Assembly: GCA_963835455.1 (NCBI GenBank)
Contig: CAWIFT010000006.1
Location: 204,503 to 268,502, forward strand
DNA length: 64,000 nucleotides
Origin: an uncultured Actinomycetes bacterium
GTDB taxonomy: Bacteria > Actinomycetota > Acidimicrobiia > IMCC26256 > PALSA-610
Direction of reading: 5' to 3'
The notes under the pieces are model-generated. The model saw only the letters and a program-made list of their open reading frames with translations, was not told the DNA's origin and ran no database searches. How positions within the stretch are numbered: the first letter of the stretch is position 1; each line of letters starts with the position of its first letter. The position numbers and the translations under genes are program-made. Shown here piece after piece: positions 2,530 to 63,152 of the stretch.

Positions 2530-2591
2530 CCTCCCAACAGTTGTCGGAGTTCTCCGCGCATAGCGCCGATATCTCCGACAACTGTTGGTGG
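2530..2591 (-). repeat. palindromic intergenic element, copy 1 (reverse orientation); likely pyk terminator
   Basis: Arms CTCCCAACAGTTGTCGGAG and CTCCGACAACTGTTGGTGG flank a 23-nt loop. The element abuts the pyk stop at 2592-2594. Read on the pyk strand, the hairpin is followed by TTTTT (complement of 2525-2529). Copies 2 and 3 are at 19401 and 62311. Confidence 0.8.
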
Positions 2592-4852: not shown

Positions 4853-5709
4853 CGGAACAGCTGCGGACCGTCGCGTTGATCGGCCCCGGGCGGGCGGGGA
4901 CGACGATCGCGCTCGGCCTGATGGACCAGGGTTGGACGGTGGTCGGCGTCGGAGGCCGCGCGCCGGACGCGCCGTCGACCACGTCCGCGGCCGCGTGCCT
5001 GGCGTCGAGGCCGGCGCTGGTGTCGGAGGTCGCGCGCGGTGCGGCGCTCGTGCTGATCGCCACCCCCGACCGGGCCATCGAACAGGTGCTGCTCGCGGCC
5101 GAGCCCGCGATCGAGCCGGGCGCGCTCGTCGTGCACCTCGCGGGGTCGCGCGGGCTCGACGTGTTCACGCCGCTGCTCGAGCTGCGCACCGGCCTCCGCG
5201 TCGGTGCGATGCATCCACTGCAGTCGTTTCCCTCGACGACCGCGGGGCTCGAGCGACTCGTCGGCGCGTGGGCCGCGGTCGCGGGTGATCCGGCGGTGGC
5301 CGACATCGCGCGCTCGCTCGGCCTGCGTCCCTTCGAGCTGGCCGACTCCGACCGCGGGCGCTACCACGCCGCCGCGGTCATCGCTTCGAACCATCTCGTC
5401 GCACTCCTCGGTCAGGTCGAGCGGCTGGCGACGAGCTGCGCGGTTCCGTTCGAGGCATTCGCACCGCTGGTGCTCGCGTCGGTGCAGAACTCCTTCGCGC
5501 TGGGTCCGGCCGAAGCGCTCACCGGACCGGTCGCCCGGGGCGACCTCGCCACGGTCGAACAACATCTCCGCGATCTCGATCCGGCCGAGCGCGATGCGTA
5601 CCGGGCCCTGGCGCGCGAAGCCGCCCGGCTCACCGGACGCCGTGACACCGGGCTCGACCGCCTGCTCGGTGATCTCCGCCAGCAGCCGGGCACCCCGGAC
5701 GAGGAATAG
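4849..5709 (+). CDS. Rossmann-fold / DUF2520-type protein (ketopantoate-reductase-like context)
   Basis: ATG at 4849 overlaps the folK stop (ATGA). The N-terminus VALIGPGRAGTTIALGL is a dinucleotide-binding fold. The C-terminus has TGPVARGD. It sits between folK and panC, as in other actinobacteria. Confidence 0.6.
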   Translation: MTEQLRTVALIGPGRAGTTIALGLMDQGWTVVGVGGRAPDAPSTTSAAACLASRPALVSEVARGAALVLIATPDRAIEQVLLAAEPAIEPGALVVHLAGSRGLDVFTPLLELRTGLRVGAMHPLQSFPSTTAGLERLVGAWAAVAGDPAVADIARSLGLRPFELADSDRGRYHAAAVIASNHLVALLGQVERLATSCAVPFEAFAPLVLASVQNSFALGPAEALTGPVARGDLATVEQHLRDLDPAERDAYRALAREAARLTGRRDTGLDRLLGDLRQQPGTPDEE

Positions 5710-10414: not shown

Positions 10415-11891
<1,477 letters not shown>

Positions 11892-14829: not shown

Positions 14830-15807
14830 TCAGCTCGATCGCTGCACGAGCCCGTCGACGAGCGTGCGCAGACGATCGCACACCCCGGGATCGAGCTCGG
14901 TCGCGCCCGCGAGCGCCTCGGACGCCTTCGTCGCGTGCGTGCGGGCGACGGCCATCGACGCGTCGATGACGTCCGGGACGGCGATGAGCTCGACCGCCCG
15001 GGTGACCTGCGACCACTCGAGCTTGCGGCCGAGCAGCGCCGACAGCTCTTCGGACCGGGAGATCGCGTAGATCACGGGCAGCGTGTAGACGCCTTCGTGC
15101 ACGTCGTTGCCGGCCGGTTTGCCGAGCTCGGCCTCGGTGCCGGTGACGTCGAGGACGTCGTCGACCACCTGGAAGCACATGCCGAGGTGATGGCCGAACT
15201 GCGTGAGCGCGTCGAGGCTGTCCGCCGACACGTTGCTCACCATCGCCCCGATGTGGGATGCGGTCGCCATCAGCGACGCGGTCTTGCCTTCGATGGACGA
15301 GAGGTACGACTCCTCCGAGCGGGTGACGTCGAACAGGTGTTGGAGCTCCAACACCTGGCCGCGACACAGCTCACCGATCGTCGCCGCCAACAACGCGGCG
15401 ACGTCCGCGCCCAGCGAAGCCGCGAGCGACGACGCCTGGGCGAGCAGATAGTCGCCCGCGAGGATCGCGACGATGTTCGACCAGCGCGCGTTGACCGACG
15501 GCACACCGCGCCGGGTCTCGGCCTCGTCGATCACGTCGTCGTGATACAGCGAGCCCAGGTGGACCAACTCGACCGCGGCGCCCCCGGTGACGACCTCGGG
15601 TGTGGCCGGCCCGCCGCTGCCCGCCGCCGCGTATCCCGCGCACAGTGACAGCGTCGGCCGCAGTCGCTTTCCGCCCGCGGCCAACAGGTGTCCGGCGAGA
15701 TCGCCCAGGAACTGGTCGTCCGACCGGACGGCGTCGTTCAGCCGTTCTTCGACGCGTACGAGGTCGGCGGGGAGCGGGGCCAGCCCGACGTCATCGATCA
15801 GCGACAC
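14830..15807 (-). CDS. polyprenyl diphosphate synthase
   Basis: The GTG start at 15807 gives 325 aa. Both aspartate-rich motifs are present (LYHDDVIDE and QVVDDVLD). The rest of ORF 14830..16137 upstream of the GTG looks non-coding. Confidence 0.85.
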   Translation of the reverse strand: MSLIDDVGLAPLPADLVRVEERLNDAVRSDDQFLGDLAGHLLAAGGKRLRPTLSLCAGYAAAGSGGPATPEVVTGGAAVELVHLGSLYHDDVIDEAETRRGVPSVNARWSNIVAILAGDYLLAQASSLAASLGADVAALLAATIGELCRGQVLELQHLFDVTRSEESYLSSIEGKTASLMATASHIGAMVSNVSADSLDALTQFGHHLGMCFQVVDDVLDVTGTEAELGKPAGNDVHEGVYTLPVIYAISRSEELSALLGRKLEWSQVTRAVELIAVPDVIDASMAVARTHATKASEALAGATELDPGVCDRLRTLVDGLVQRSS

Positions 15808-16060: not shown

Positions 16061-18575
<2,515 letters not shown>

Positions 18576-18615
18576 CGACTCGGACCCGCGTCTCAACCGC
18601 CGATCATCGACTGTT

Positions 18616-19400
18616 GTGACGCGGGTCCGGCGTCTGAGCGTTCTCGTCGGGCTGGTGATCGCGCTCGCGGGTTGCAACGTCAACGCGCGCTTCGACATCA
18701 CGATGCGCGAGGACGGCACGGGGACCGTCCGGACCACGATCACCGTGGACTCCGACGCCGTGCAACGTCTCGGTGGGCCGACCACGTTCGCGCAGACCAT
18801 TCCGCTCGACGACCTGCGCGCCGCGGGGTGGACCGTGTCGTCGTGGAAGCGCGGTGACGGCGGGACGGAGACGATCCAGCTGTCGCATCCGTTCGTGGAC
18901 CAGGCCGACCTCGGGCGCCGCATCGTCGACCTCGCGGGACCGAACGGCATCCTGCAAAAGCCCGCGCTGACCCATGATCGCGGTTGGTTCAGCTCGCGCT
19001 ACGCGCTCGGTCTGGTCGTCGACGTCCGCTCGCCGTCGGTCGACATCGTGCACGACGCCGCGCTCTCGAGCCGGCTCCGGGCCGCGGGCGTCGATCCCGC
19101 GTTGTTGCAGGCTCAGCTCGCGGTGGAGCTCAAGTCCGCGCTCCACGTCAGCGTGGTCGTGCATCTCCCGGGCGGGGCGACGCACACCTATGACGCGGCC
19201 ACGGGCACGGTGCAGACCTTCCGGGCGACGAGCGGCGGGACCAACTGGGATCACATCGTGAAGTTCGGTATCGGGTTGGCACTGGCGTTGCTCGCGGGCA
19301 TGTTCTTCCTCGCGGCCGGCGTCGGCGTGCGTCGCAACCGCCGGCGCGCCTCGGAACGGGTGGACCGCGCCCCCGACCCGAACGCACGCCCCTCATGTAA
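18616..19400 (+). pseudogene. LppM/DUF3153-like lipoprotein with C-terminal TM anchor; no in-frame stop
   Basis: Signal peptide and lipobox LVIALAGC. A C-terminal helix IVKFGIGLALALLAGMFFLAAGVGV is followed by RRNRRR. The frame then runs on to 20994 across radA. A TAA in the -1 frame at 19398-19400 abuts the repeat element. Confidence 0.6.
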
Positions 19401-19504
19401 CCCACCAACAGTTGGCGGAGTTATCACCGCCATGCGTTGTTTTCTCCGACAACAGTTGGTGGAGTTGTCGGCGCCATGCGTTGTTTTCTCCGACAACGTG
19501 GAGG
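19401..19504 (+). repeat. palindromic intergenic element, copy 2, with internal 44-bp tandem duplication
   Basis: Sequence is CCACCAACAGTTGGCGGAG-TTATCACCGCCATGCGTTGTTTT-CTCCGACAACAGTTGGTGGAG, then a second GTTGTCGGCGCCATGCGTTGTTTTCTCCGACAAC unit. Confidence 0.8.
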
Positions 19505-19543: not shown

Positions 19544-20914
19544 ATGACCCGAACATCTGTTCGACCGCCTGTGTACGTGTGCGCCACCTGCGGCTACGAG
19601 TCGGCCAAGTGGCTCGGGCGCTGCACCGAGTGCGGCACGTGGGGCTCGGTGGCGGAATCGGCGCCGGCGCTGCGGGCGGCGCCCGGAGGACGACGGTCGG
19701 TCTCGTTGCGGAGCGTGCCCACGCCGATCGCCCAGGTGGAGACGGCGGGGGCCTCGCATCTGTCGACGGAGGTTCCCGAGCTCGACCGGGTCCTGGGCGG
19801 GGGCCTGGTCGCGGGCTCGGTCACCCTCATCGGCGGCGAGCCCGGGATGGGCAAGAGCACGCTGTTGATGCAGGCGCTCGGGAGCATCGCGGCGCGCGGG
19901 GCCCGGTGCCTGTTGGTGTGCGCCGAGGAGTCGGCCGCGCAGGTGCGGATGCGGGCCGACCGGCTGGGCGCGCTCGCGCCCGAGTTGTACGTCGTGTCGG
20001 AAACGTCGCTGCCCGCGGTCGTCGCGTCCGTCGCCACGCTCGAGCCGGTCGTGCTCGCCATCGACTCGATCCAGGCGGTCCACGATCCGGATGCGCCGGG
20101 CGCGGCCGGTTCGGTCGCCCAGGTACGCGACGGCGCGCAGGAACTCGTCCGCATCGCGAAGGAGAACGACATCGCGACGGTGCTGGTCGGGCACGTCACC
20201 AAGGACGGCGGGCTGGCGGGGCCGCGGGCACTCGAGCACGTCGTCGACACGGTGCTCTCGTTCGAGGGCGATCGTCACCACGCGCTGCGGATGTTGCGCG
20301 CGTTGAAGCACCGCTTCGGCGCCACCGACGAGCTCGGGCTCATGGAGATGACCGCGGGTGGGCTGCTTCCGGTCTCCGACCCGAGCGCGCTGTTTCTCGC
20401 CGACCGGCGGGCGGGCGCGACGGGCTCGGTGGTCACCGCGGTCATGGAAGGGACGCGGCCGCTGTGTGTCGAGGTCCAGGCGCTCGTCGCGCCGACGGGC
20501 GCGCCGATCCCGCGGCGGACGGCGCAGGCCTTCGAGGGCAACCGCCTGGCGATGCTCGTCGCGGTCCTGCAGCAGCGCGCCCACATCGGCCTGGCGAGTC
20601 ACGACGTGTACGCGAGTGTCGCGGGCGGCGTGCGCGTCGCCGAACCGGCCGCCGACCTCGCGGTCGCGCTTGCGATCGCCGGCGCACAGAACGACTGGGC
20701 GATCGCGGCCGACACGATCGTGCTCGGCGAGATCGGACTGGGCGGCGAGATCCGTCAGGTCCCCCAGGCGGCGCGGCGGCTGACCGAAGCACTGCGGCTC
20801 GGCTTTCGGAACGCGATCGTGCCACTCTCCACGCCCGACGTCACGGGCGTCACGCTGCGGCGGGTCGCCGATCTCCGGGAGGCGCTGGCCGCGGCCACGT
20901 CCGGCGCGGGGTAG
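19544..20914 (+). CDS. radA: DNA repair protein RadA
   Basis: ATG at 19544. Zinc ribbon CATCGYESAKWLGRCTECGTWGS, Walker A GEPGMGKST, and a Lon-like C-terminal domain. Confidence 0.92.
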   Translation: MTRTSVRPPVYVCATCGYESAKWLGRCTECGTWGSVAESAPALRAAPGGRRSVSLRSVPTPIAQVETAGASHLSTEVPELDRVLGGGLVAGSVTLIGGEPGMGKSTLLMQALGSIAARGARCLLVCAEESAAQVRMRADRLGALAPELYVVSETSLPAVVASVATLEPVVLAIDSIQAVHDPDAPGAAGSVAQVRDGAQELVRIAKENDIATVLVGHVTKDGGLAGPRALEHVVDTVLSFEGDRHHALRMLRALKHRFGATDELGLMEMTAGGLLPVSDPSALFLADRRAGATGSVVTAVMEGTRPLCVEVQALVAPTGAPIPRRTAQAFEGNRLAMLVAVLQQRAHIGLASHDVYASVAGGVRVAEPAADLAVALAIAGAQNDWAIAADTIVLGEIGLGGEIRQVPQAARRLTEALRLGFRNAIVPLSTPDVTGVTLRRVADLREALAAATSGAG

Positions 20915-23005: not shown

Positions 23006-23671
23006 AACAGTCGCGCGTATCTCGAGTTCTTCGCGGTTCACGATGCGGTACCGGCTGCGGCCGGAGATCTCGAGCCAGCCCAGCTTCACGAACAGGGCGA
23101 TCGCCTTGTTCACGCGTTCGCGTGAGGCACCGACCATGCCCGCCAGCTCCTCTTGGGTGAGGGGCATGCGGAAGTCGTCCTCGCCGTCGGCGAGCTCGAG
23201 GAGGCGCTTGGCCGTGCGCCCGGTCACGTCGAGGAACATCGCGTCGGAGAGCGCCTCGTCGGTGGCGCGGAGCCGCCGGGCGAGGATGCGCACCACGGCC
23301 CACAGCACCTCGGGCCGGCGGATGAGCACGTCGCGCACGTCGTCGAACTCGACCGCGATCAGGTGCACCGTCGTGAGCGCGCGGGCGTTCGCGGAGCGCA
23401 CACCACCGTCGAACATCGACATCTCGCCGAAGAGCGCACCCGGGCCGAGCACGGTCAGGACCGACTCGCGGTCGTCGGAGGCCTTGGCGACGATGGCGAT
23501 CCGGCCCGAGAACACCACGTAGAGGTGGGTGGCGGGATCGTCCTTCTGGAAGATCGTGTCGCCCCGGCGATAGCGCGCAAGGGCCGTTCGGCCTCGCAGC
23601 TGCTCGAGCAGCTCGGGAGGCAATGTTCCGAAAAGATCGGTCTTGTCGAGCACCGGCGTGCGTGCCGCCAT
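23003..23671 (-). CDS. crp: Crp/Fnr family transcriptional regulator
   Basis: 222 aa with a cNMP-binding domain (LGPGALFGEMSMFDG) and a C-terminal HTH (TQEELAGMVGASRERVNKAI). Confidence 0.85.
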   Translation of the reverse strand: MAARTPVLDKTDLFGTLPPELLEQLRGRTALARYRRGDTIFQKDDPATHLYVVFSGRIAIVAKASDDRESVLTVLGPGALFGEMSMFDGGVRSANARALTTVHLIAVEFDDVRDVLIRRPEVLWAVVRILARRLRATDEALSDAMFLDVTGRTAKRLLELADGEDDFRMPLTQEELAGMVGASRERVNKAIALFVKLGWLEISGRSRYRIVNREELEIRATV

Positions 23672-23870
23672 GTCTCCGAGTCCTGTCCTCGCGGGAGGCT
23701 ATCCGAGGCTTGTTCGGGCCGCCCGTGTGTTCTGGGTCACATTGGCATCGGCGCAAATGCGCCCCGGCCTGAGACCTTCCCCGACTCGGTGGACAGGTTG
23801 CCGCCGACGGTCCGTCAGGGTTCGGCGTGGCGCTGGTCAAGACGGCGGTTCCGCCGCCGATGAGACCGGG

Positions 23871-24909
23871 ATGTTCGTCGAGGGTGTTCGCCTGTTCGTC
23901 GTCGTTCTGGGCACCGCCGCGGGCTTTTGGGCGGCGCGCGCCTTTGGTACCGAGGCCCAGGGCCTCGGCGGCATGCTCGGCTGCCTGCTCGGCTACGTCA
24001 GCGGCGGAATCCTCGGCCGGGTCCTCGACAAGGCGTTGGGGGTGGTCGAGAAGCGGGTGGACCGCCGCTCGCCCGCCCGGTTCGTCGCCGGCACGCTCGG
24101 CGCGATCGCGGGTTCCACCCTCGCCCTCGTGCTCGTACTGCCGGCCGCGCTGTTGGTGCCCGTGCCGTTCGCGGTCTCGATGGTGGGCCTGGCGTCGTGG
24201 ATCTTCGGTTACGTCGGCTTCCGTATCGTCGCCCGGCAGAGCGAGGCGGTGCTCGAGTTGCTCGGACTCTCGACGCGACCGCTGGTGCGGGCCCAGGCGT
24301 TCGACGCCCGCGACGGCCTGTTGGTCGACTCGTCGGTGGTGATGGACGGCCAGTTGCTCCCGCTGACCCGCGCCGGCGTGTTGAGCGGCGACCTGATGGT
24401 TGCGCGCTTCGTGCTCGACGAGGTGCAGGGCTTCGCCGACGCCACCGACGACGTGAAGCGCCGCCGCGCCCGGCGCGGGCTCGAGACACTCGACCTGCTC
24501 CGCCAGGAAGGTCATGTGCGCCTGTTCGTGCTCGACGACGAGATCCCGGAGATCCCCGAGGTCGACGCGAAGCTCATCGCGCTCGCGCGTCGCCTCCAGC
24601 TTCGCCTGCTCACCAACGACGGTCCGCTCGCGCGCAACGCCCAGCTCCAGGGTGTCCCCACGACGAACCTCCGCAAGCTCGCGCAGGAACTGACGCCGAG
24701 CATCGGGCCCGGCGACTACGTGCGCGTCGCGCTGCACGCGTGAGGGCAAGGAAACCGGCCAGGGTGTCGGTCATCTCGACGACGGGTCCATGGTGGTCGT
24801 GAACGGCGGTCACGAGCTCGTCGGTGGTCCGGAAGTGATGTTGCAGGTGACCTCGGTCGTACCGACGGCCGCCGGGCGCTTGCTGTTCGCACGCCTCGAA
24901 GATGCCTAG
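23871..24909 (+). pseudogene. YacL-like membrane PIN + TRAM domain protein, frame-disrupted near 24738
   Basis: ATG at 23871, followed by TM helices and a PIN domain (LLVDSSVVMDG...LLTNDGPLARNA). The ORF stops at 24743 after GDYVRVALHA. The +1 frame continues REGKETGQGVGHLDDGSMVVVNGG...LLFARLEDA, a TRAM domain, to TAG at 24907-24909. Confidence 0.75.
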
Positions 24910-28322: not shown

Positions 28323-28395
28323 GCCGGGTTAGCTCAGTCGGTAGAGCAGCTGATTTGTAATCAGCAGGTCGTCGGTTCGATCCCGACACCCGGCT
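28323..28395 (+). tRNA. tRNA-Thr (anticodon UGU)
   Basis: Acceptor stem GCCGGGT/ACCCGGC, D-arm AGCTCAGTCGGTAGAGC. Anticodon stem GCTGA/TCAGC with loop TTTGTAA. T-arm GGTTCGATCCC. 73 nt, with no encoded CCA. Confidence 0.9.
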
Positions 28396-36540: not shown

Positions 36541-36581
36541 GCGGGCAGAGTACGGGAATCTGTTATTCTCCCCGTCAACGC

Positions 36582-36690
36582 GCTCATCGAGAGCGGCCGA
36601 GGGACAGGCCCTTTGACGCCGCGGCAACCAGCGAAGACCCCGGGTACTGCCCGAAGGTCCGAGCCAGGTGCCAATGCCTGACCGATGAGC
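36582..36690 (+). promoter_or_regulatory. SAM-I (S-box) riboswitch aptamer
   Basis: P1 is GCTCATCG/CGATGAGC. Conserved core strings appear in the right order: ATCGAGAG-GG-GAGGGA-GGCCC-TGA-GCC-GGCAACC...GGTGCCAA-CC...GATGAG. It ends 78 nt upstream of the ThrC-like ATG. Confidence 0.85.
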
Positions 36691-36767
36691 AGCCAAAGAG
36701 CGGCCTCCAGATAGAGGACAGCCGCTCGAGGCGCTCGGAGCGCGTCGAGACAAAGGGAGACGCTCCG

Positions 36768-41474: not shown

Positions 41475-41544
41475 TGAGTGACGCCCCGAGGCTCTTGGGC
41501 AGTACCATTGACCAGGGATTTTGGGTGGCCACGGAGGGGCGGGG

Positions 41545-42495
41545 ATGTTTGGTTCGCGGCGCGTGCTCGCGGCCGTCTGCATCGGTGTCGGTCTGTTCGG
41601 CGCGGGCTGCGGCGGCCGGGACTTCGCCCGCCGCTCGAGCCCGGCGAAGCCCGCGGCCGCCATCACCACCGCGCCGGTCCCGGTCGCGCACGACCCGCGT
41701 CTGCAGGCCGCGCTGTTGCATGCGGTGACCCTCACCACGGCGGTGCACACCGCGCGTACCTCGATCTCGGTGACGGTCACCGGCCGGGGGGACGAGGCGC
41801 TGGCGACCGGCGCGTTCAACATCGCCGGGAACGGCGTCGTCGATTTCGCCAACGGCAATACCGACCTCTCACTCAGCATCCCACTCTTCGATCGACTCGG
41901 TGGCGGTGGCGTCGTCGAACAGCGGGTCGTCGGCGGCGTCGTGTACACGAAGTTGCCGCCCGACGTGCTCCGGTTCGCGGGCATGCCGGCCGCGGTGCGT
42001 TGGGTCAGCCTCGATCCGCAGAAGGTCGGCTCCGATCTGTCGGCGCTGTCGCAGGCGCAGGCCGACCCCGCCGGCCAACTCGCGTTCCTGGCCGCGATCT
42101 CGACCGATGTCCGCCGGGTGGGATCCGCATCGGTGCGGAGTGTGCCGACGACGCACTACGCGGCGACGGTCGACCTCGGAGCCGACGACCGGAGTGCCCG
42201 CCGCGTCGCCGCCGTCGGCGCGAAGCTCGCCCAGTTCGGCGCGGTGATCGGTACCCACCGGCTCGCGGTCGACGTGTGGATCGACGGCGCCCGCCGGGCC
42301 CGCCGGGTCGTGGTCTCGGTGCCGCTTTCGGCCAATTCGGCCGCCCCGGCGATCAAGGCCCTCGGCTCCGACGCCACGATGAGGATTCAGAGCGACTACT
42401 TCTCCTTCGGTGCGCCCGTCCGGGTCGCGGCTCCTCCACACGCGGAGGTGCGCCCGTACGACGCGTTGCGGATCGACGCCGCCGGCAACGGCTGA
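41545..42495 (+). CDS. secreted lipoprotein, paralog A (LppX/LprAFG-like fold, tentative)
   Basis: ATG at 41545 with signal peptide and lipobox GLFGAGC. It shares blocks with the next gene (TAR..V..TG.G, VVG..VY.K, VR..TT.Y.ATVD, V.VW.D, FGAPV.V). Confidence 0.6.
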   Translation: MFGSRRVLAAVCIGVGLFGAGCGGRDFARRSSPAKPAAAITTAPVPVAHDPRLQAALLHAVTLTTAVHTARTSISVTVTGRGDEALATGAFNIAGNGVVDFANGNTDLSLSIPLFDRLGGGGVVEQRVVGGVVYTKLPPDVLRFAGMPAAVRWVSLDPQKVGSDLSALSQAQADPAGQLAFLAAISTDVRRVGSASVRSVPTTHYAATVDLGADDRSARRVAAVGAKLAQFGAVIGTHRLAVDVWIDGARRARRVVVSVPLSANSAAPAIKALGSDATMRIQSDYFSFGAPVRVAAPPHAEVRPYDALRIDAAGNG

Positions 42496-42544
42496 CCCGG
42501 CGCCGGCGCTCAGGCCCGGGCGCAGTCGCACCGATATCTCCGGG

Positions 42545-43744
42545 GTGACGAAGACGCGGTCCCTCGCGATTCCCGGTCTGGTGCTCGCGCTCTCGCTCGC
42601 GGCCGCCGGTTGCGGCGGTCAGCCGTTTCCGACCACCGCGCCGCGGCCGTCGGTCTCGCCGCCCGCGACGGCTCAGGCGCGTCTGCTCGCGGCGGTGAGG
42701 AACACCAACGCGGCGAAGACCGCGCGCTTTGCCGTCGACATGTCGATGACGGGCCTGGGCCGCGCGGCCGGCGCGCCGACGGGCTCCATCGCGGTCACCG
42801 GATCGGGTGTGATGGATCTCACGCAGCGGCGCTTCTCGATGCAAGTGGCGAGCAACGACCCGTCCCAGAAATCGATGGAGATTCGGGTCGTCGGGAACAC
42901 GGTGTACCTGAAGTCGGACGCGGGTTGGACGAGTCAGCCGGTCGGCGCGGCGAGCGCGTTCACGCCCGTGCCGACGAGCTATCTCGACTACTTGAAGGGC
43001 CTCGGCGGGACCATCCGCGTCGAAGGCCGCGAGACCGTGCGCGGCGCGGCCACCACGCGTTACCGCGCGACCATCGACTTCTCCCGCACGGCGGCGAGTC
43101 TCCGTTCCCCGACCAAAGGCGCCGTGGTCAAGGGCTTGCTCGACCTGATCGGACTCACGAAGATCCCGGTCACGGTGTGGCTCGACGATCTCGGTCGCAT
43201 GCGCAAGATGACGATGACGATGGATCTCAGCTCGCTCGGCAAGGGAATGAACGCGCCCGCCGACTTCGCGCCCAAGATGGTGCTCACGTTGGAGATGTAC
43301 GACTTCGGCGCGCCGGTGTCGGTCGAGGTTCCGAGCGGCGCGGTGAAGGCGAAGGCGAACTCCTCGTCCTCGACCGTCTGTCTCTCCGGTACCTGTCCCG
43401 GGGCGGACACCGGCCCGACGGCACACGACATCCAGTCCGACCTGCGCAACGCGCTCACGGCGGAGAAAGTGATCTACACGGATTCTTCCGCGTACAGCGA
43501 CGACATCGCGGCGATGAAACAGATCGAGCCGTCTCTCGACTGGGGTGGCCGGCTGAAGGTCGTCGCCGGCAACTCGTCGGTGGCGAGTCACGGGCTCGTG
43601 TGCCTGAGCGAAGCGTCGAACGGCTTGGTGTACTCGATCGGCGACGTCGCATCCGGTCCGAGAGCCGGCACCTACTTCGGCACGACGCCGTGCGGCTCGC
43701 CGGTCAGCGAAGGCTCGTTCGACCGGTACAAATCGAGCTGGTAG
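42545..43744 (+). CDS. secreted lipoprotein, paralog B, with about 130-aa pilin-like C-terminal extension
   Basis: GTG at 42545 with lipobox LAAAGC. It is homologous to paralog A up to FGAPVSVEVP. It then continues DIQSDLRNALTAEKVIYTDSSAYS..., resembling the globular part of type IV pilin-like proteins. Confidence 0.6.
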   Translation: MTKTRSLAIPGLVLALSLAAAGCGGQPFPTTAPRPSVSPPATAQARLLAAVRNTNAAKTARFAVDMSMTGLGRAAGAPTGSIAVTGSGVMDLTQRRFSMQVASNDPSQKSMEIRVVGNTVYLKSDAGWTSQPVGAASAFTPVPTSYLDYLKGLGGTIRVEGRETVRGAATTRYRATIDFSRTAASLRSPTKGAVVKGLLDLIGLTKIPVTVWLDDLGRMRKMTMTMDLSSLGKGMNAPADFAPKMVLTLEMYDFGAPVSVEVPSGAVKAKANSSSSTVCLSGTCPGADTGPTAHDIQSDLRNALTAEKVIYTDSSAYSDDIAAMKQIEPSLDWGGRLKVVAGNSSVASHGLVCLSEASNGLVYSIGDVASGPRAGTYFGTTPCGSPVSEGSFDRYKSSW

Positions 43745-44858: not shown

Positions 44859-45137
44859 TCAGGGGGCGACCATCTCCCACATCGCGAACGCGACGTACTC
44901 GACGCCGTCGTGCATCTCGGTTCGACCGGCCCGGCGGAGCTCGCCCATGCACGCCTTCGCGGCCTCGAAGCCGAGGATCCGCTTGAAGTCCGCGACCGCG
45001 ACGAGCAGCGGTCCGTCCGCGTCGCCCTCCCGCAGCAGTGCGTCGACCTCGAGTACGGGGTGCGCCGGATCACGCGGGTCGATGCACGCGCAGTGATAGA
45101 CGATCCGCTCGAAGACCGACAACGCCCGGAGTCGCAC
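44859..45137 (-). CDS. hypothetical small protein
   Basis: This is the C-terminal 93 codons of ORF 44859..45464, from GTG 45137 (VRLRALSVFERIVYHCACIDPRDP...VAFAMWEMVAP). It has protein-like composition. The upstream part of the ORF is Ala/Ser-rich and antisense to the next gene. Confidence 0.35.
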   Translation of the reverse strand: MRLRALSVFERIVYHCACIDPRDPAHPVLEVDALLREGDADGPLLVAVADFKRILGFEAAKACMGELRRAGRTEMHDGVEYVAFAMWEMVAP

Positions 45138-45153
45138 GCGACGATGTTGGCCG

Positions 45154-45666
45154 ATGCCGACCCCCGCTGACGACCACGCACCCGACCCGGCGGCCGATGC
45201 CGTCGCGGGCAACGCACTGATGGCGGAGGGCTCGGCGCGGTTGGTGGCGGGCGTGGAACAGCTCGGCGCGGCGTGGGTCGTCGGCGTGGTCACCGGCCTG
45301 ATCGACGCGTGGGGGAAGCTCGATCCGGCGGCGCGGGCCGGCGCCGTCGCGGCCGCGGCCGCCGCCGGCGAGCGGGCGGCGGCGCGCGTCGCATCCGAGC
45401 TCCGGGAGCTGTTCGAGCTCGACCCGGCCGCGCAACGCTCGACGCCGCTCGAGATCATCCGCACCCTGGCGCGCGAGGCGAGCGCCGTGCTCCGCGCCGC
45501 GGGGGTCCCCGAGGTCGTGCGTGATCCCTTCGAGGCGCGCGCCTTCCCCGACGACGTCTACGGCATCGTGCTGAAGACGCCCGCCGAGCTGGGCGACGAC
45601 GAGCTGGGGGGCGCGCTCCTCGCGTGGGGTATGGGCAAGGCGAAGGTCCTCCGGGCTCGTGCGTAG
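45154..45666 (+). CDS. hypothetical protein
   Basis: A 170-aa ORF with a globular-looking C-terminal half (TPLEIIRTLAREASAVLRAAGVPEVVRDPFEARAFPDDVYGIV). I recognise no family. Confidence 0.45.
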   Translation: MPTPADDHAPDPAADAVAGNALMAEGSARLVAGVEQLGAAWVVGVVTGLIDAWGKLDPAARAGAVAAAAAAGERAAARVASELRELFELDPAAQRSTPLEIIRTLAREASAVLRAAGVPEVVRDPFEARAFPDDVYGIVLKTPAELGDDELGGALLAWGMGKAKVLRARA

Positions 45667-54058: not shown

Positions 54059-54186
54059 GCGCACGTCTGCGCGCACGGGCCGGCGGGAACCATCGTGAAC
54101 CGCCGGCGGGGCGTGCGTGCCTCGGTGTCGGTGACGCGCCCGAAATCACGAGACCGTCGTCGCAAGCGCGTCGCGTAATTCGCGGG

Positions 54187-54244
54187 CTACTACCGGTGGT
54201 AGCACGGGTGGTATCACCGGCGGTACCACCGGTAGTAGCACCGG
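54187..54244. repeat. four tandem 12-bp units with embedded 13-bp inverted repeat
   Basis: The units CGGTGGTAGCAC, GGGTGGTATCAC, CGGCGGTACCAC and CGGTAGTAGCAC span 54194-54241. CTACTACCGGTGG (54187-54199) is the reverse complement of CCACCGGTAGTAG (54226-54238). The array lies about 90 bp upstream of the MBL-fold gene. Confidence 0.85.
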
Positions 54245-54328
54245 AACAATGAGGGTGTGTTGCCGGCGCCTTCCCGAGCTGACCGCAGCCGATCCGGGCG
54301 TACCGGGGCGGGGGATACCCTGCCGGGC

Positions 54329-61399: not shown

Positions 61400-62308
61400 A
61401 TGGACGTACGCCAGCTCGAAGCGCTCCTCGCGGTGGCCGAGGCGGGCAGTTTCACCGAAGCCGCCGACCTGTTGCACACGGTCCAATCGAACGTTTCCGA
61501 GCACGTTCGCCAGCTGGAGGCCGAGCTCGGCGTGCAGCTGTTGGTGCGGGGTCGGCGGGGGACGGTCCCCACGGAATTCGGCGTGCGCGTCATCGAGCGG
61601 GCCCGCGCGATCCGCAGCGAGATCGAGGCGCTGCGCAAGGACCTGTCGATGTTGCAGGGGCTCGAGACCGGCCACGCGACGCTCGGTGTCGTCGGAACCG
61701 TCAGCCGTCTGCTCGTGCCGTTGGTGGTGGCCGAGATGCGCAGGAGCGCGCCCGGCCTCTCGCTGCGGCTCACCGAGGGTGCGTCGGAGCGCCTCGCGGG
61801 CGAGGTCGCCGATCGTCAGCTCGCGAGCGCGGTCGTCACCGAACCGGTGAGCGACACGCGGTTGCACGTCGAGCACCTCCGCGACGAAGCGCTCGTCGCG
61901 CTCGTCCCGTCGTTCCTGCGGCCCGACGCGGTGGAGCCGGTGCCGCTGTCCGACATCGCGAGCGAGACGTTGATCCTCCCGCCCGCGGGCAACCCTCTGC
62001 GCGACGAGGTGGAGACCGCGGCGCGCGCCGAGCGGGTCGAGCTACGCGTCCCGATCGAAGTCGAAGGTGTGCGACTCATCGCCGATCTCGTGAGCGCGGG
62101 GGTCGGGGTGTCGATCCTGCCCGAGACCGCGGTCGCACGCGATCACGTCGGCGTGCGCCAGTTGCTCATCGCGCGCATGCCGCCGCGCCGGCTCGCGCTC
62201 GTCACCGCGCGCGGCGTGCAGCTGTCGCTGGCCGATCAGGCCGTCCACGACGCGGTCCGCCGCCTCGTCCGCGACGAACCCCTCCCCCACGCGGTGCTCA
62301 CCGCATAA
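61400..62308 (+). CDS. LysR-family transcriptional regulator
   Basis: 302 aa with the N-terminal HTH MDVRQLEALLAVAEAGSFTEAADLLHTVQSNVSEHVRQLE. Confidence 0.9.
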   Translation: MDVRQLEALLAVAEAGSFTEAADLLHTVQSNVSEHVRQLEAELGVQLLVRGRRGTVPTEFGVRVIERARAIRSEIEALRKDLSMLQGLETGHATLGVVGTVSRLLVPLVVAEMRRSAPGLSLRLTEGASERLAGEVADRQLASAVVTEPVSDTRLHVEHLRDEALVALVPSFLRPDAVEPVPLSDIASETLILPPAGNPLRDEVETAARAERVELRVPIEVEGVRLIADLVSAGVGVSILPETAVARDHVGVRQLLIARMPPRRLALVTARGVQLSLADQAVHDAVRRLVRDEPLPHAVLTA

Positions 62309-62310
62309 GA

Positions 62311-62378
62311 AATCCACCAACAGTTGTCGGAGAAATCAACGCTCTGCGCTGAGAAGTCCGACAACAGTTGGTGGAGAT
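62311..62378 (+). repeat. palindromic intergenic element, copy 3
   Basis: Sequence is TCCACCAACAGTTGTCGGAG-AAATCAACGCTCTGCGCTGAGAAG-TCCGACAACAGTTGGTGGAG. It starts 4 nt after the lysR-type TAA, between convergent genes. Confidence 0.8.
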
Positions 62379-62387
62379 TTGCGGGGG

Positions 62388-63152
62388 TTATTTGTCGGTG
62401 GGGACGAAGCGGGTGCCGATGACGGTGCGCTCGGCGGCGAGACCGATCACCTCGAGGCGGTCGACGCCGGGGAGCGCGTCGGCATCGGTCTCCAACCGGA
62501 CGCGCGCGCCGCGCGGCCACACGAGGTCGGCCGAGGTGGGGGTCTCGTCCTCGACGTCGCCCTGCAGGATGCCGGCGAAGAAGCTCAACGCCGCCGGGAG
62601 TGACGGCGTGCGCAGCACGACGCGGCGCAACGTGCCGTGTCCGGTTGCGGGCGCGGGGTCGACCCACCAACGCGGGTGCATGTTGGGTCCGTGCGCGGCG
62701 ACGTAGTCGAGGAGCTCGGCGCGCGTCTCGGGATGACCGTGCGACTCCGCGAGCTGCACGACGGTGCCGTGCGCCTCCCGCGGCATGAGGAACGCTTCTT
62801 TCCACTCGGGATCGGAAACGTCGATGTTCACGGGATGGAAGCCCGCGCCGCGCACGCGGGCGACGGCCTCGGCGAGGTCGGGAACCTTGAACGTCATGTG
62901 GTGCGGCCCCGCGCCGTGGCGCGCGACGAAGCGGGCGAGGAAGTCGTTCTTCTCGACGGCCCACGGTTCGAGTAGCTCCACTGGCATCCCGTCGCCGGCG
63001 CGCGAACCCAACCACACTTGCATCGGCCGGAACCCGACGGCCTGACCGCCGAAGATGACGGTGCCACCGAGGTCGCCGGTCAGGAAACGCAGCGCGTCCG
63101 ACGTGTCGGGCGCGGCCAGCGCGACATGGTCGAGGTCGTAGCGGTCGGTCAC
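62388..63152 (-). CDS. VOC (glyoxalase/dioxygenase-fold) family protein
   Basis: 254 aa made of two beta-alpha-beta-beta-beta-like halves (LDHVALAAPD... and HHMTFKVPD...). Confidence 0.6.
   Translation of the reverse strand: MTDRYDLDHVALAAPDTSDALRFLTGDLGGTVIFGGQAVGFRPMQVWLGSRAGDGMPVELLEPWAVEKNDFLARFVARHGAGPHHMTFKVPDLAEAVARVRGAGFHPVNIDVSDPEWKEAFLMPREAHGTVVQLAESHGHPETRAELLDYVAAHGPNMHPRWWVDPAPATGHGTLRRVVLRTPSLPAALSFFAGILQGDVEDETPTSADLVWPRGARVRLETDADALPGVDRLEVIGLAAERTVIGTRFVPTDK

Follow-up and report, generated by a model that had tools for sequence, protein, structure and literature searches.

Short palindromes stand directly beside stop codons at three places in a 64,000-nucleotide (nt) stretch of DNA from an uncultured actinobacterium (contig CAWIFT010000006.1, positions 204,503 to 268,502; hereafter, the window). 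This study addressed whether these palindromes form one repeat family and, if so, of what kind. A first-pass annotation of the window had proposed a conserved family of about 63 bp that abuts stop codons in a fixed orientation. The results revealed a true sequence family whose units are inserted DNA. On balance, we consider it probable, with moderate confidence, that the family consists of short non-coding interspersed palindromic repeats resembling either the repetitive extragenic palindromic (REP) sequences, with their compound forms, the bacterial interspersed mosaic elements (BIMEs) and the REP doublets called REPINs, or the Tuberculosis Rho-independent terminator (TRIT), and that it serves as a terminator or stabiliser of transcripts.

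The repeat family and its hosts

The window has a G+C content of 69%. The 19-nt arm CCACCAACAGTTGTCGGAG matched it six times at three or fewer mismatches, compared with 0.02 matches expected, and none of 100 shuffled sequences reached six. The six matches form three inverted pairs (2531/2591, 19402/19462, and 62314/62374), two matches to each copy, and the core CCAACWGTTGK had seven exact matches in the window, again compared with 0.02 expected. The three sequences quoted in the first-pass annotation were present exactly as written, and its claim of a family rather than chance terminators was confirmed, identical arms having been found across loci and genomes whose flanking DNA is otherwise dissimilar.

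Additional copies were identified in other metagenome-assembled genomes (MAGs) and in metagenomes, where they were extragenic and mostly close to stop codons, in line with the proposed family. Species-representative genomes were scanned with the 16-nt degenerate arm; among the matches listed, 7 of 116 loci were real, none of the seven coming from the source genome of the window, and the others were mostly single chance matches in unrelated phyla. Full copies among the matches listed (L020, L060, L078, and L053/L054/L107) came from five Actinomycetota/Acidimicrobiia MAGs, and a truncated copy was present at L040, in the same MAG as L053. With a two-arm pattern, copies were found in 16 metagenome contigs (L117-L132). 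The hosts are uncultured actinobacteria of one group, from soil and freshwater. Through the relatives of its pyk gene, the host of the window was assigned to a lineage of uncultured Acidimicrobiia; the best hit was 93% identical, and the named hits were labelled "Acidimicrobiia bacterium".

With the exception of two short matches in genes, one of which falls in the element-bearing L107, the element was the sole DNA that the window had in common with these loci. A conserved gene segment (window 16132-16404) was 71% identical to L107; the elements were 86-95% identical, and the arm was identical. The arms are much better conserved than the host genes.

An alignment of 23 non-redundant copies (3 window copies, 6 MAG copies, and 14 copies on metagenome contigs) defined the order of the unit. 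It opens with 3-4 variable outer nucleotides (CCAC, CTCC, CCCC, or CTGC), followed by an arm and a 4-nt A/T-rich spacer; the centre is a GC-rich inner hairpin of about 6 bp with a 3-nt loop, beyond which come another A/T-rich spacer of 4 nt and the arm in inverted form, CTCCGACAACWGTTGG. The 16-nt arm CCAACWGTTGTCGGAG was invariant across these copies, which represent at least eight genomes or metagenome populations. Each arm contains a 9-nt perfect palindrome, CAACWGTTG, so that the arms are direct as well as inverted repeats over 9 nt, at a distance of 44 nt. The loop triplet was frequently ATG/CAT or ATA/TAT. In the two copies reported by a repeat finder, complementarity extended through the presumed loop, with arms of 26-30 nt and 3 nt between them; each copy is therefore a long, nearly perfect palindrome. 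As a separate observation, the polyprenyl synthetase gene of the window contains a perfect palindrome of 24 nt, CAGGTGTTGGAGCTCCAACACCTG (15327-15350). This palindrome matched the element model weakly (E = 0.12) and has GTTGGAG/CTCCAAC in common with a variant arm from a related genome (L133, described below), probably by chance.

RNA folding of the copies on either strand gave values of -38 to -45 kcal/mol (z -4.3 to -8.7), which no shuffled sequence equalled. In the outer helix, 93% of the alignment cells were paired and 11 of 19 pairs never varied, a pattern of sequence conservation and not of covariation. The inner helix was paired in 86% of cells, with exchanges among GC, AU, and CG at two pairs. 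The spacers were paired in 41% of cells and showed mainly A.A or T.T oppositions, which form a conserved A/T internal loop. Both helices were recovered independently by RNAalifold. The first-pass annotation had described a conserved loop core (ATC..CGC..TGCG). Over the 23 copies, this inner stretch of 23 nt proved instead to be the variable part, in which the GC stem retains its pairing and the spacers vary.

The fixed polarity proposed for the three copies relative to their genes did not hold, the element being symmetric. A covariance model built from the alignment scored the two strands of single-unit copies within 0-6 bits of each other, and its strand-specific scores revealed no consistent polarity. 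Over the central 23 nt, copy 1 on the minus strand and copy 3 on the plus strand agreed at 18 of 23 positions, in the alignment first proposed. Copy 2 fitted copy 3 better when reversed (17/23) than as first aligned (13/23), and copies 1 and 2 agreed at 13/23 in either orientation. Because copies 1 and 3 both sit between convergent genes, an upstream gene exists for them on either strand. The direction of the adjacent gene was not tracked in the larger set by the loop triplet or by the type of spacer (T-rich or A-rich), the far-side gene calls being uncertain for many metagenome copies. A hand count of stem mismatches on arbitrary strands gave about 9 G.U compared with 10 A.C; approximately 40% were of the wobble type, roughly as transitions alone give.

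The family is apparently undescribed, which agrees with the earlier statement that it matches no named family. A search of the whole window against Rfam at gathering thresholds returned only a tRNA and a SAM riboswitch, both away from the copies, and an E-value search with copy 1 returned only sub-threshold chance matches to generic miRNA hairpins (best 22.6 bits, compared with a gathering score of 58). In the full-text literature, we found no paper containing the arm sequence and nothing relevant on REP sequences, REPINs, or REP-associated tyrosine transposases (RAYTs) in Actinobacteria or Acidimicrobiia. In viral contigs, all 104 hits were chance matches to a single arm and a full element did not occur, and blastn against plasmids and phages returned no copy; evidence for a mobile vector was thus found in none of these three sets.

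Position at gene ends, filled and empty sites

The copies in the window begin 0, 2, and 5 nt past a stop codon, namely the pyk TGA, the TAA at 19397-19399, and the TAA at 62306-62308, as first reported. Copy 1 occupies the space between the stops of two convergent genes, one of the 172-aa type (plus strand, stop 2516-2518) and pyk (minus strand, TGA 2592-2594), and it is followed directly on the pyk strand by a run of five T residues (2525-2529), also as described earlier. Copy 2 has a lipoprotein gene on one side and radA, which starts at 19544, on the other. Like copy 1, copy 3 is flanked by convergent stops, those of a LysR-family regulator on the plus strand, at 5 nt, and of a glyoxalase-family gene on the minus strand (stop 62388-62390), at 13 nt. 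Pfam confirmed pyk, radA, LysR, and glyoxalase as neighbours of the copies and returned no hit for the lipoprotein, so that the label "LppM-like" given to it in the first-pass annotation was not confirmed.

The same annotation had called the TAA before copy 2 out of frame. The stop is indeed at that position; the displaced frame is a consequence of an indel in the window. Compared with three orthologous loci (L242, L243, and L244), the lipoprotein gene (18616-19399) is missing 1 nt, which the DNA alignment places in a C-run at approximately 19369-19373, about 30 nt upstream of the TAA. As sequenced, the open reading frame (ORF) skips the TAA and reads on through the element and, out of frame, through radA as far as 20994. 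The orthologues comprise 255-263 aa, are 86-95% identical, and end in ...RPERTPLM*, which corresponds to frame 2 of the window. Because this ending lies in frame 2 and the window lacks 1 nt, the TAA at 19397-19399 is the authentic lipoprotein stop; therefore, copy 2 also begins 2 nt past a genuine stop. The frameshift is either a homopolymer assembly error or real.

We examined 26 loci, calling the ORFs around the copies crudely on the basis of G+C content at third codon positions (GC3). A stop codon was found 0-20 nt from the element in most of them; the exceptions were L020 (43 nt), L054 (51 nt), and the truncated copy at L040 (35 nt). Convergent genes flank many of the copies, and no copy is clearly intragenic, two of the crude ORF calls spanning the element; among these loci, no copy was seen in divergent or promoter-side intergenic regions. 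The location at gene 3' ends and the hairpin or terminator-like architecture were thus borne out. The neighbouring genes are unrelated and metabolic (SDR, P450, acyl-CoA dehydrogenase, glycosidase, TetR, and ABC). An all-against-all comparison of neighbour ORFs within 3 kb of 25 copies revealed no gene family recurring beside the element and no transposase or RAYT. Consistent with the first-pass annotation, neither was found among the window ORFs scanned, the first 14 kb of the window having been judged by synteny with annotated loci.

Orthologous sites were then compared in relatives. The pyk site is empty in L134-L137, relatives with approximately 82% nucleotide identity to the window at syntenic loci, and in the contig P0001, the closest relative at this site (93%); 14-19 nt separate the pyk stop from the convergent stop. 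No copy occurred anywhere in 57 kb of L134-L137, and an exact look-up of the pyk gene of the window returned no identical record. L245 and L246 likewise have no element between the LysR and glyoxalase genes, which stand 2 nt apart there or overlap, so that the spacing between stops at empty pyk and LysR sites ranges from overlap to 19 nt. Because these orthologous sites are empty, the units are inserted DNA, with insertion polymorphism and vertical retention. The retention was evident at the radA site, whose copy is common to L242 (94.5% nucleotide identity), L243, and L244; the identities of these relatives span 90-94.5%. This copy is old.

The number of 44-nt units also differed among relatives. 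At the radA site, L242, L243, and L244 each carry one unit with a right arm shortened to CTCCGACAAC-GTGG. The window carries exactly one additional 44-nt unit, bounded by CAAC repeats, which gives 1.5 units in total through a 44-nt tandem duplication reaching approximately 19496. The partial unit at the radA site is the ancestral one common to L242-L244, and the preceding unit is its tandem duplication. At the pyk site, the unit counts were 0 (L134-L137), 1 (window), and 5 (L133), and arrays overall ranged from 0 to 5 units. L133 comes from a 3.7-Mb MAG contig, and its pyk is 86% identical; it carries at the pyk site a divergent variant with arms CCACCAACAGTCGGCAG and CTGCCAACAGTTGGAGG, arranged as a five-unit array of near-identical 44-nt units (11420-11660). 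Three right arms were present in L053, and two overlapping units in L125. In L246, a solo 16-nt palindrome, CACCAACTGTTGGTGG (5357-5373), lies in an intergenic region downstream of a PAC2-family gene. It is what remains after the 44 nt between two CAACWGTTG repeats are deleted, that is, the outer ends of the element, and may be either the scar of a deletion or a primordial site. The number of 44-nt units is variable in a manner consistent with slippage or unequal exchange between CAACWGTTG repeats.

Further observations were made at these loci. C/A-rich micro-repeats that reiterate the outer end of the arm lie directly 5' of several copies (L054 4971-5021, L040 3729-3785, L243 1986-2000, and L244 1166-1185), examples being CCCCACCAACACAA, present three times, and CCCACCAAACCCCCACCAACCCC; they suggest slippage at the arm boundary. 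In L133, the convergent gene had been called with its start inside the array. Contig L134, of metagenome origin, terminates (11485) 72 nt past pyk, inside the convergent gene, and in the element-bearing metagenome contigs L120, L124, and L132 a contig end lies no more than a few hundred bases from a copy, which is compatible with assemblies breaking near the repeat. The positions of the copies in the window, and of the parts of copy 1, are provided in Table 1.

Table 1. Copies of the palindromic element in the window and parts of copy 1 as an example unit
Feature	Position	Strand	Description or basis
Copy 1	2531..2591	.	Single 61-62-nt palindromic unit; RNA fold -44.8/-43.0 kcal/mol, z -7.7/-6.8; 80.8/79.1 bits per strand
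Copy 2, full unit	19402..19462	.	Arm matches, RNA fold, covariance-model score, alignment with relatives
Copy 2, second, partial 44-nt unit	19463..19496 (end approximate)	.	AG TTGTCGGCGCCATGCGTTGTTTT CTCCGACAAC; right arm shortened to CAAC-GTGG
Copy 3	62314..62374	.	RNA fold -38.5/-40.6 kcal/mol
16-nt arm CCAACAGTTGTCGGAG (example)	2534..2549	+	Holds the 9-nt palindrome CAACWGTTG; inverted partner 2573-2588
Inner GC hairpin (example)	2554..2568	.	Approximately 6 bp with a 3-nt loop; variable; pair counts over aligned copies
A/T-rich unpaired 4-nt spacers (example)	2550-2553 and 2569-2572		Flank the inner hairpin of copy 1

Relation to known repeats and proposed role

Three groups of known elements were considered for comparison. 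REP sequences and BIMEs of Enterobacteria and Pseudomonas, and REPINs, are mobilised by RAYT/TnpA_REP (PMC3333891, PMC3116915, PMC3337134). The element shares many of their features: both are imperfect palindromes of short length that occur outside genes in many copies; a pair of inverted units with a short linker gives one long hairpin, as in REPINs and BIMEs; the arms are themselves partly palindromic; the copies occupy 3' intergenic regions and gaps between convergent genes; and presence or absence differs among relatives. As in BIMEs, the number of tandem units per locus varies among strains or relatives (at radA, 1 unit in L242-L244 compared with 1.5-2 in the window). Roles as terminator and as mRNA stabiliser are proposed for both, REPs having been described as dual terminators and stabilisers in 3' untranslated regions (bioRxiv 10.64898/2026.03.23.713779).

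The differences concern sequence and host. A conserved GTAG (or CGTC) tetranucleotide stands 5' of the palindrome foot in REPs and is needed for TnpA_REP binding and cleavage (PMC3333891), whereas the consensus here, CCACCAACAGTTGTCGGAG...CTCCGACAACTGTTGGTGG, has neither GTAG/CTAC nor CGTC/GACG in its conserved arm columns. In architecture and behaviour the element is therefore like a REP doublet (BIME/REPIN), but the tag that defines REPs by sequence was not found. A REP is an imperfect palindrome of 30-40 nt with a required stem mismatch, whereas the arm here measures 16-19 nt and contains a perfect palindrome of 9 nt. Unlike REPs, the element has its arm conserved across quite divergent genomes, and it differs from the REP/RAYT system in that no RAYT was found in the window or neighbour ORFs covered above. 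In that system, the repeats flank a single-copy gene for RAYT/TnpA_REP, an enzyme of the Y1 HUH type, an arrangement called a REPtron. The REPIN and RAYT literature that we found makes no mention of Actinobacteria, whereas the present host belongs to the class Acidimicrobiia.

TRIT was described in Mycobacterium by Gardner et al. (2011) in the RNIE paper (PMC3152330). It is palindromic and hence bidirectional and has 147 copies in M. tuberculosis, and its authors inferred a factor that recognises the motif. TRIT and the present element both occur in actinobacterial hosts with few canonical terminators, are strongly conserved in sequence and structure, palindromic, and multi-copy, and lie close to stop codons, the distance to the nearest stop having a very narrow distribution in TRIT. 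TRIT is reported as restricted to Mycobacterium and is centred at about -8, overlapping the end of the coding region, whereas the copies here mostly start 0-20 nt past the stop. Insertion polymorphism and 44-nt arrays were found here and are not described for TRIT in the passages of PMC3152330 consulted. The likeness is one of description, because the TRIT consensus is given there solely in a figure; Rfam does not contain the TRIT model. By analogy, the element would in its biology most resemble TRIT.

The third group comprises MITEs, which are miniature transposable elements with inverted repeats. Bacterial MITEs with terminal inverted repeats, such as Correia/NEMIS of Neisseria, typically measure 100-400 nt. 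Like the present element, they are small and non-autonomous, have conserved terminal inverted repeats and a variable core, occupy intergenic regions, and can give hairpin RNAs able to affect transcript ends. At 62 nt, however, the element is far shorter, and neither the window ORFs scanned nor the neighbours of the 25 copies included a parent insertion sequence with matching ends.

These comparisons suggest the following mechanism. Because the arm is constant and the distribution is patchy, a sequence-specific trans-acting enzyme may recognise the arm, as a single-stranded hairpin or as duplex DNA, and so spread the element, much as TnpA_REP recognises REPs. Once inserted, the element would form a hairpin of the stability given above when transcribed from either strand, between A-rich 5' and T-rich 3' flanks; the 5' side contains 2.9 A per 8 nt and the 3' side 2.5 T per 8 nt, compared with 1.2 expected. 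The hairpin could then act as a bidirectional terminator, as a block to 3' exonucleases, or as both, for tightly packed convergent genes. The role at gene ends is thus probably that of a two-way transcription stop or of an RNA-protecting hairpin, an analogy that draws on the dual action of REPs and on TRIT. Terminator-like structures were called for copy 1 with its T5 and for the inner hairpin of copy 2 with TTTT. In a 20-kb scan, canonical intrinsic terminators were not in excess (7 found, 5.8 expected).

Several points weigh against a terminator or stabiliser function. The covariation is weak: the RNAalifold covariation term was -0.1, and the covariation score was matched by 5 of 500 shuffles; for this reason, the pairing could merely reflect an origin as an inverted repeat. 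The U-tracts are short (3-5 nt) and missing on some strands. Mycobacterial RNA polymerase does not terminate in vitro without a U-tract (PMC3993855), so that the hairpin alone may not terminate. Proximity to stop codons may represent survivorship in a compact genome and not targeting or function. As for the spread of the element, a mobilising enzyme was found neither among the window ORFs scanned nor among the neighbours of the 25 copies, and insertion boundaries or a target-site duplication could not be defined, the DNA at empty sites being only approximately 82% identical.

Some of these points would be expected if the element were a purely selfish MITE-like or REPIN-like miniature, with no host function, that survives only where 62 nt are harmless, just past stops. 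The patchy presence among close relatives, the weak covariation, and the unstable unit number all agree with such an element, and the gaps at empty sites are so short (overlap to 19 nt) that any tolerated insertion would lie near a stop. However, the radA-site copy has been kept across relatives at 90-94.5% identity with its inner hairpin and TTTT intact, divergent and promoter-side regions, which are longer and should tolerate insertions, had no copies among the loci examined, and the flanks are enriched for A and T. We regard this explanation as possible but rather unlikely.

A more speculative proposal, which we likewise consider unlikely, is a REPIN-like replicator outside Proteobacteria. 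The arm CCAACWGTTGTCGGAG, with its unpaired A.A/T.T internal loop, would be recognised by a vertically inherited non-RAYT enzyme or by a factor that binds RNA or DNA hairpins, which would serve either to copy the element or to terminate transcription at it in both directions, in a sequence-specific and factor-dependent manner. The latter possibility would parallel the idea of a missing factor raised for TRIT.

The element might also be a duplex DNA binding site for a dimeric host protein of the nucleoid-associated or chromosome-organising kind, with CCAAC-W-GTTGG occurring twice, 44 bp (about four helical turns) apart, and extendable in phase. CCAACWGTTGG is the most conserved part in all variants, including the divergent form in L133, the arm is invariant in sequence and does not covary, the array periodicity is strictly 44 bp, and the palindrome occurs alone in L246. 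We nevertheless judge a duplex site improbable: the pairing of the inner stem, needless for a duplex, is kept by compensatory changes, the patchy presence at orthologous sites among close relatives would be unusual for a host organising signal, the location is 3'-terminal, and no candidate protein was found. We know of no motif that matches a CCAAC-W-GTTGG site.

Ordinary intrinsic terminators that arose independently and came to look alike through convergence or chance would share the hairpin-plus-T architecture at gene ends, but this explanation has practically no probability left and was refuted by the arm statistics (0.02 chance matches expected), the empty orthologous sites, and a 16-nt arm that stays invariant in all 23 aligned copies, which represent eight or more genomes or metagenome populations. 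Integron attC sites have the consensus RYYYAAC...GTTRRRY with R''/L''-L'/R' sites and occur in cassette arrays near intI. Equally remote is a known recombination or array element, an attC site or a CRISPR-like repeat array, which would fit the imperfect palindrome at stop codons, the AAC...GTT motifs, and the 44-nt periodic arrays, but not the flanking core housekeeping genes (pyk, radA, and a folate operon), which are not cassettes and have no integrase nearby, nor the arms, which as read directly from the sequence do not follow the attC consensus, nor the "spacers" of the arrays, which are near-identical hairpins and not unique sequences.

Under the preferred reading, a REP-like or TRIT-like repeat with a terminator or stabiliser role, the element is not a new kind of system; it is an extragenic palindromic repeat at gene 3' ends whose function we infer. 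It would extend repeats of the REP/TRIT type to Acidimicrobiia, REP and REPIN biology having been described almost entirely from Proteobacteria, and it bears on the question of how transcription ends in high-GC actinobacteria without canonical terminators. A hairpin family that is sequence-defined, symmetric, and close to stops, with clear filled and empty orthologous sites and simple slippage of a 44-nt unit, provides a concrete handle. For high-GC hosts, the element could possibly supply a portable part that terminates or stabilises transcripts, and in MAGs it could mark assembly breakpoints and strain-level polymorphisms. Comparison of element-bearing with element-free relatives could reveal an enzyme or factor that recognises the arm; if none exists, the element is one more small selfish repeat.

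Other features of the window

Two further inverted repeats were identified. The longest in the window (54179-54246; 32-nt arms, 81% complementary) is composed of four to five units of approximately 12 nt resembling CCGGTGGTAGCA and lies just upstream of a gene for a metallo-beta-lactamase-fold protein; its sequence is unrelated to the element. The other (18581-18629; 24-nt arms, 88% complementary) fills the space from the stop of a Clp-ATPase gene to the start of the lipoprotein gene and belongs to a different family, being likewise a hairpin at a gene end. Four sizeable ORFs with high GC3 (23574-24740, 41512-42492, 42383-43741, and 45100-45663) had no Pfam match at the thresholds used. The window also contains an ordinary SAM riboswitch (36581-36691, 67.3 bits) upstream of a gene for a pyridoxal phosphate (PLP)-dependent enzyme, followed by a ThiS-family gene, and one ordinary tRNA (28323-28395).

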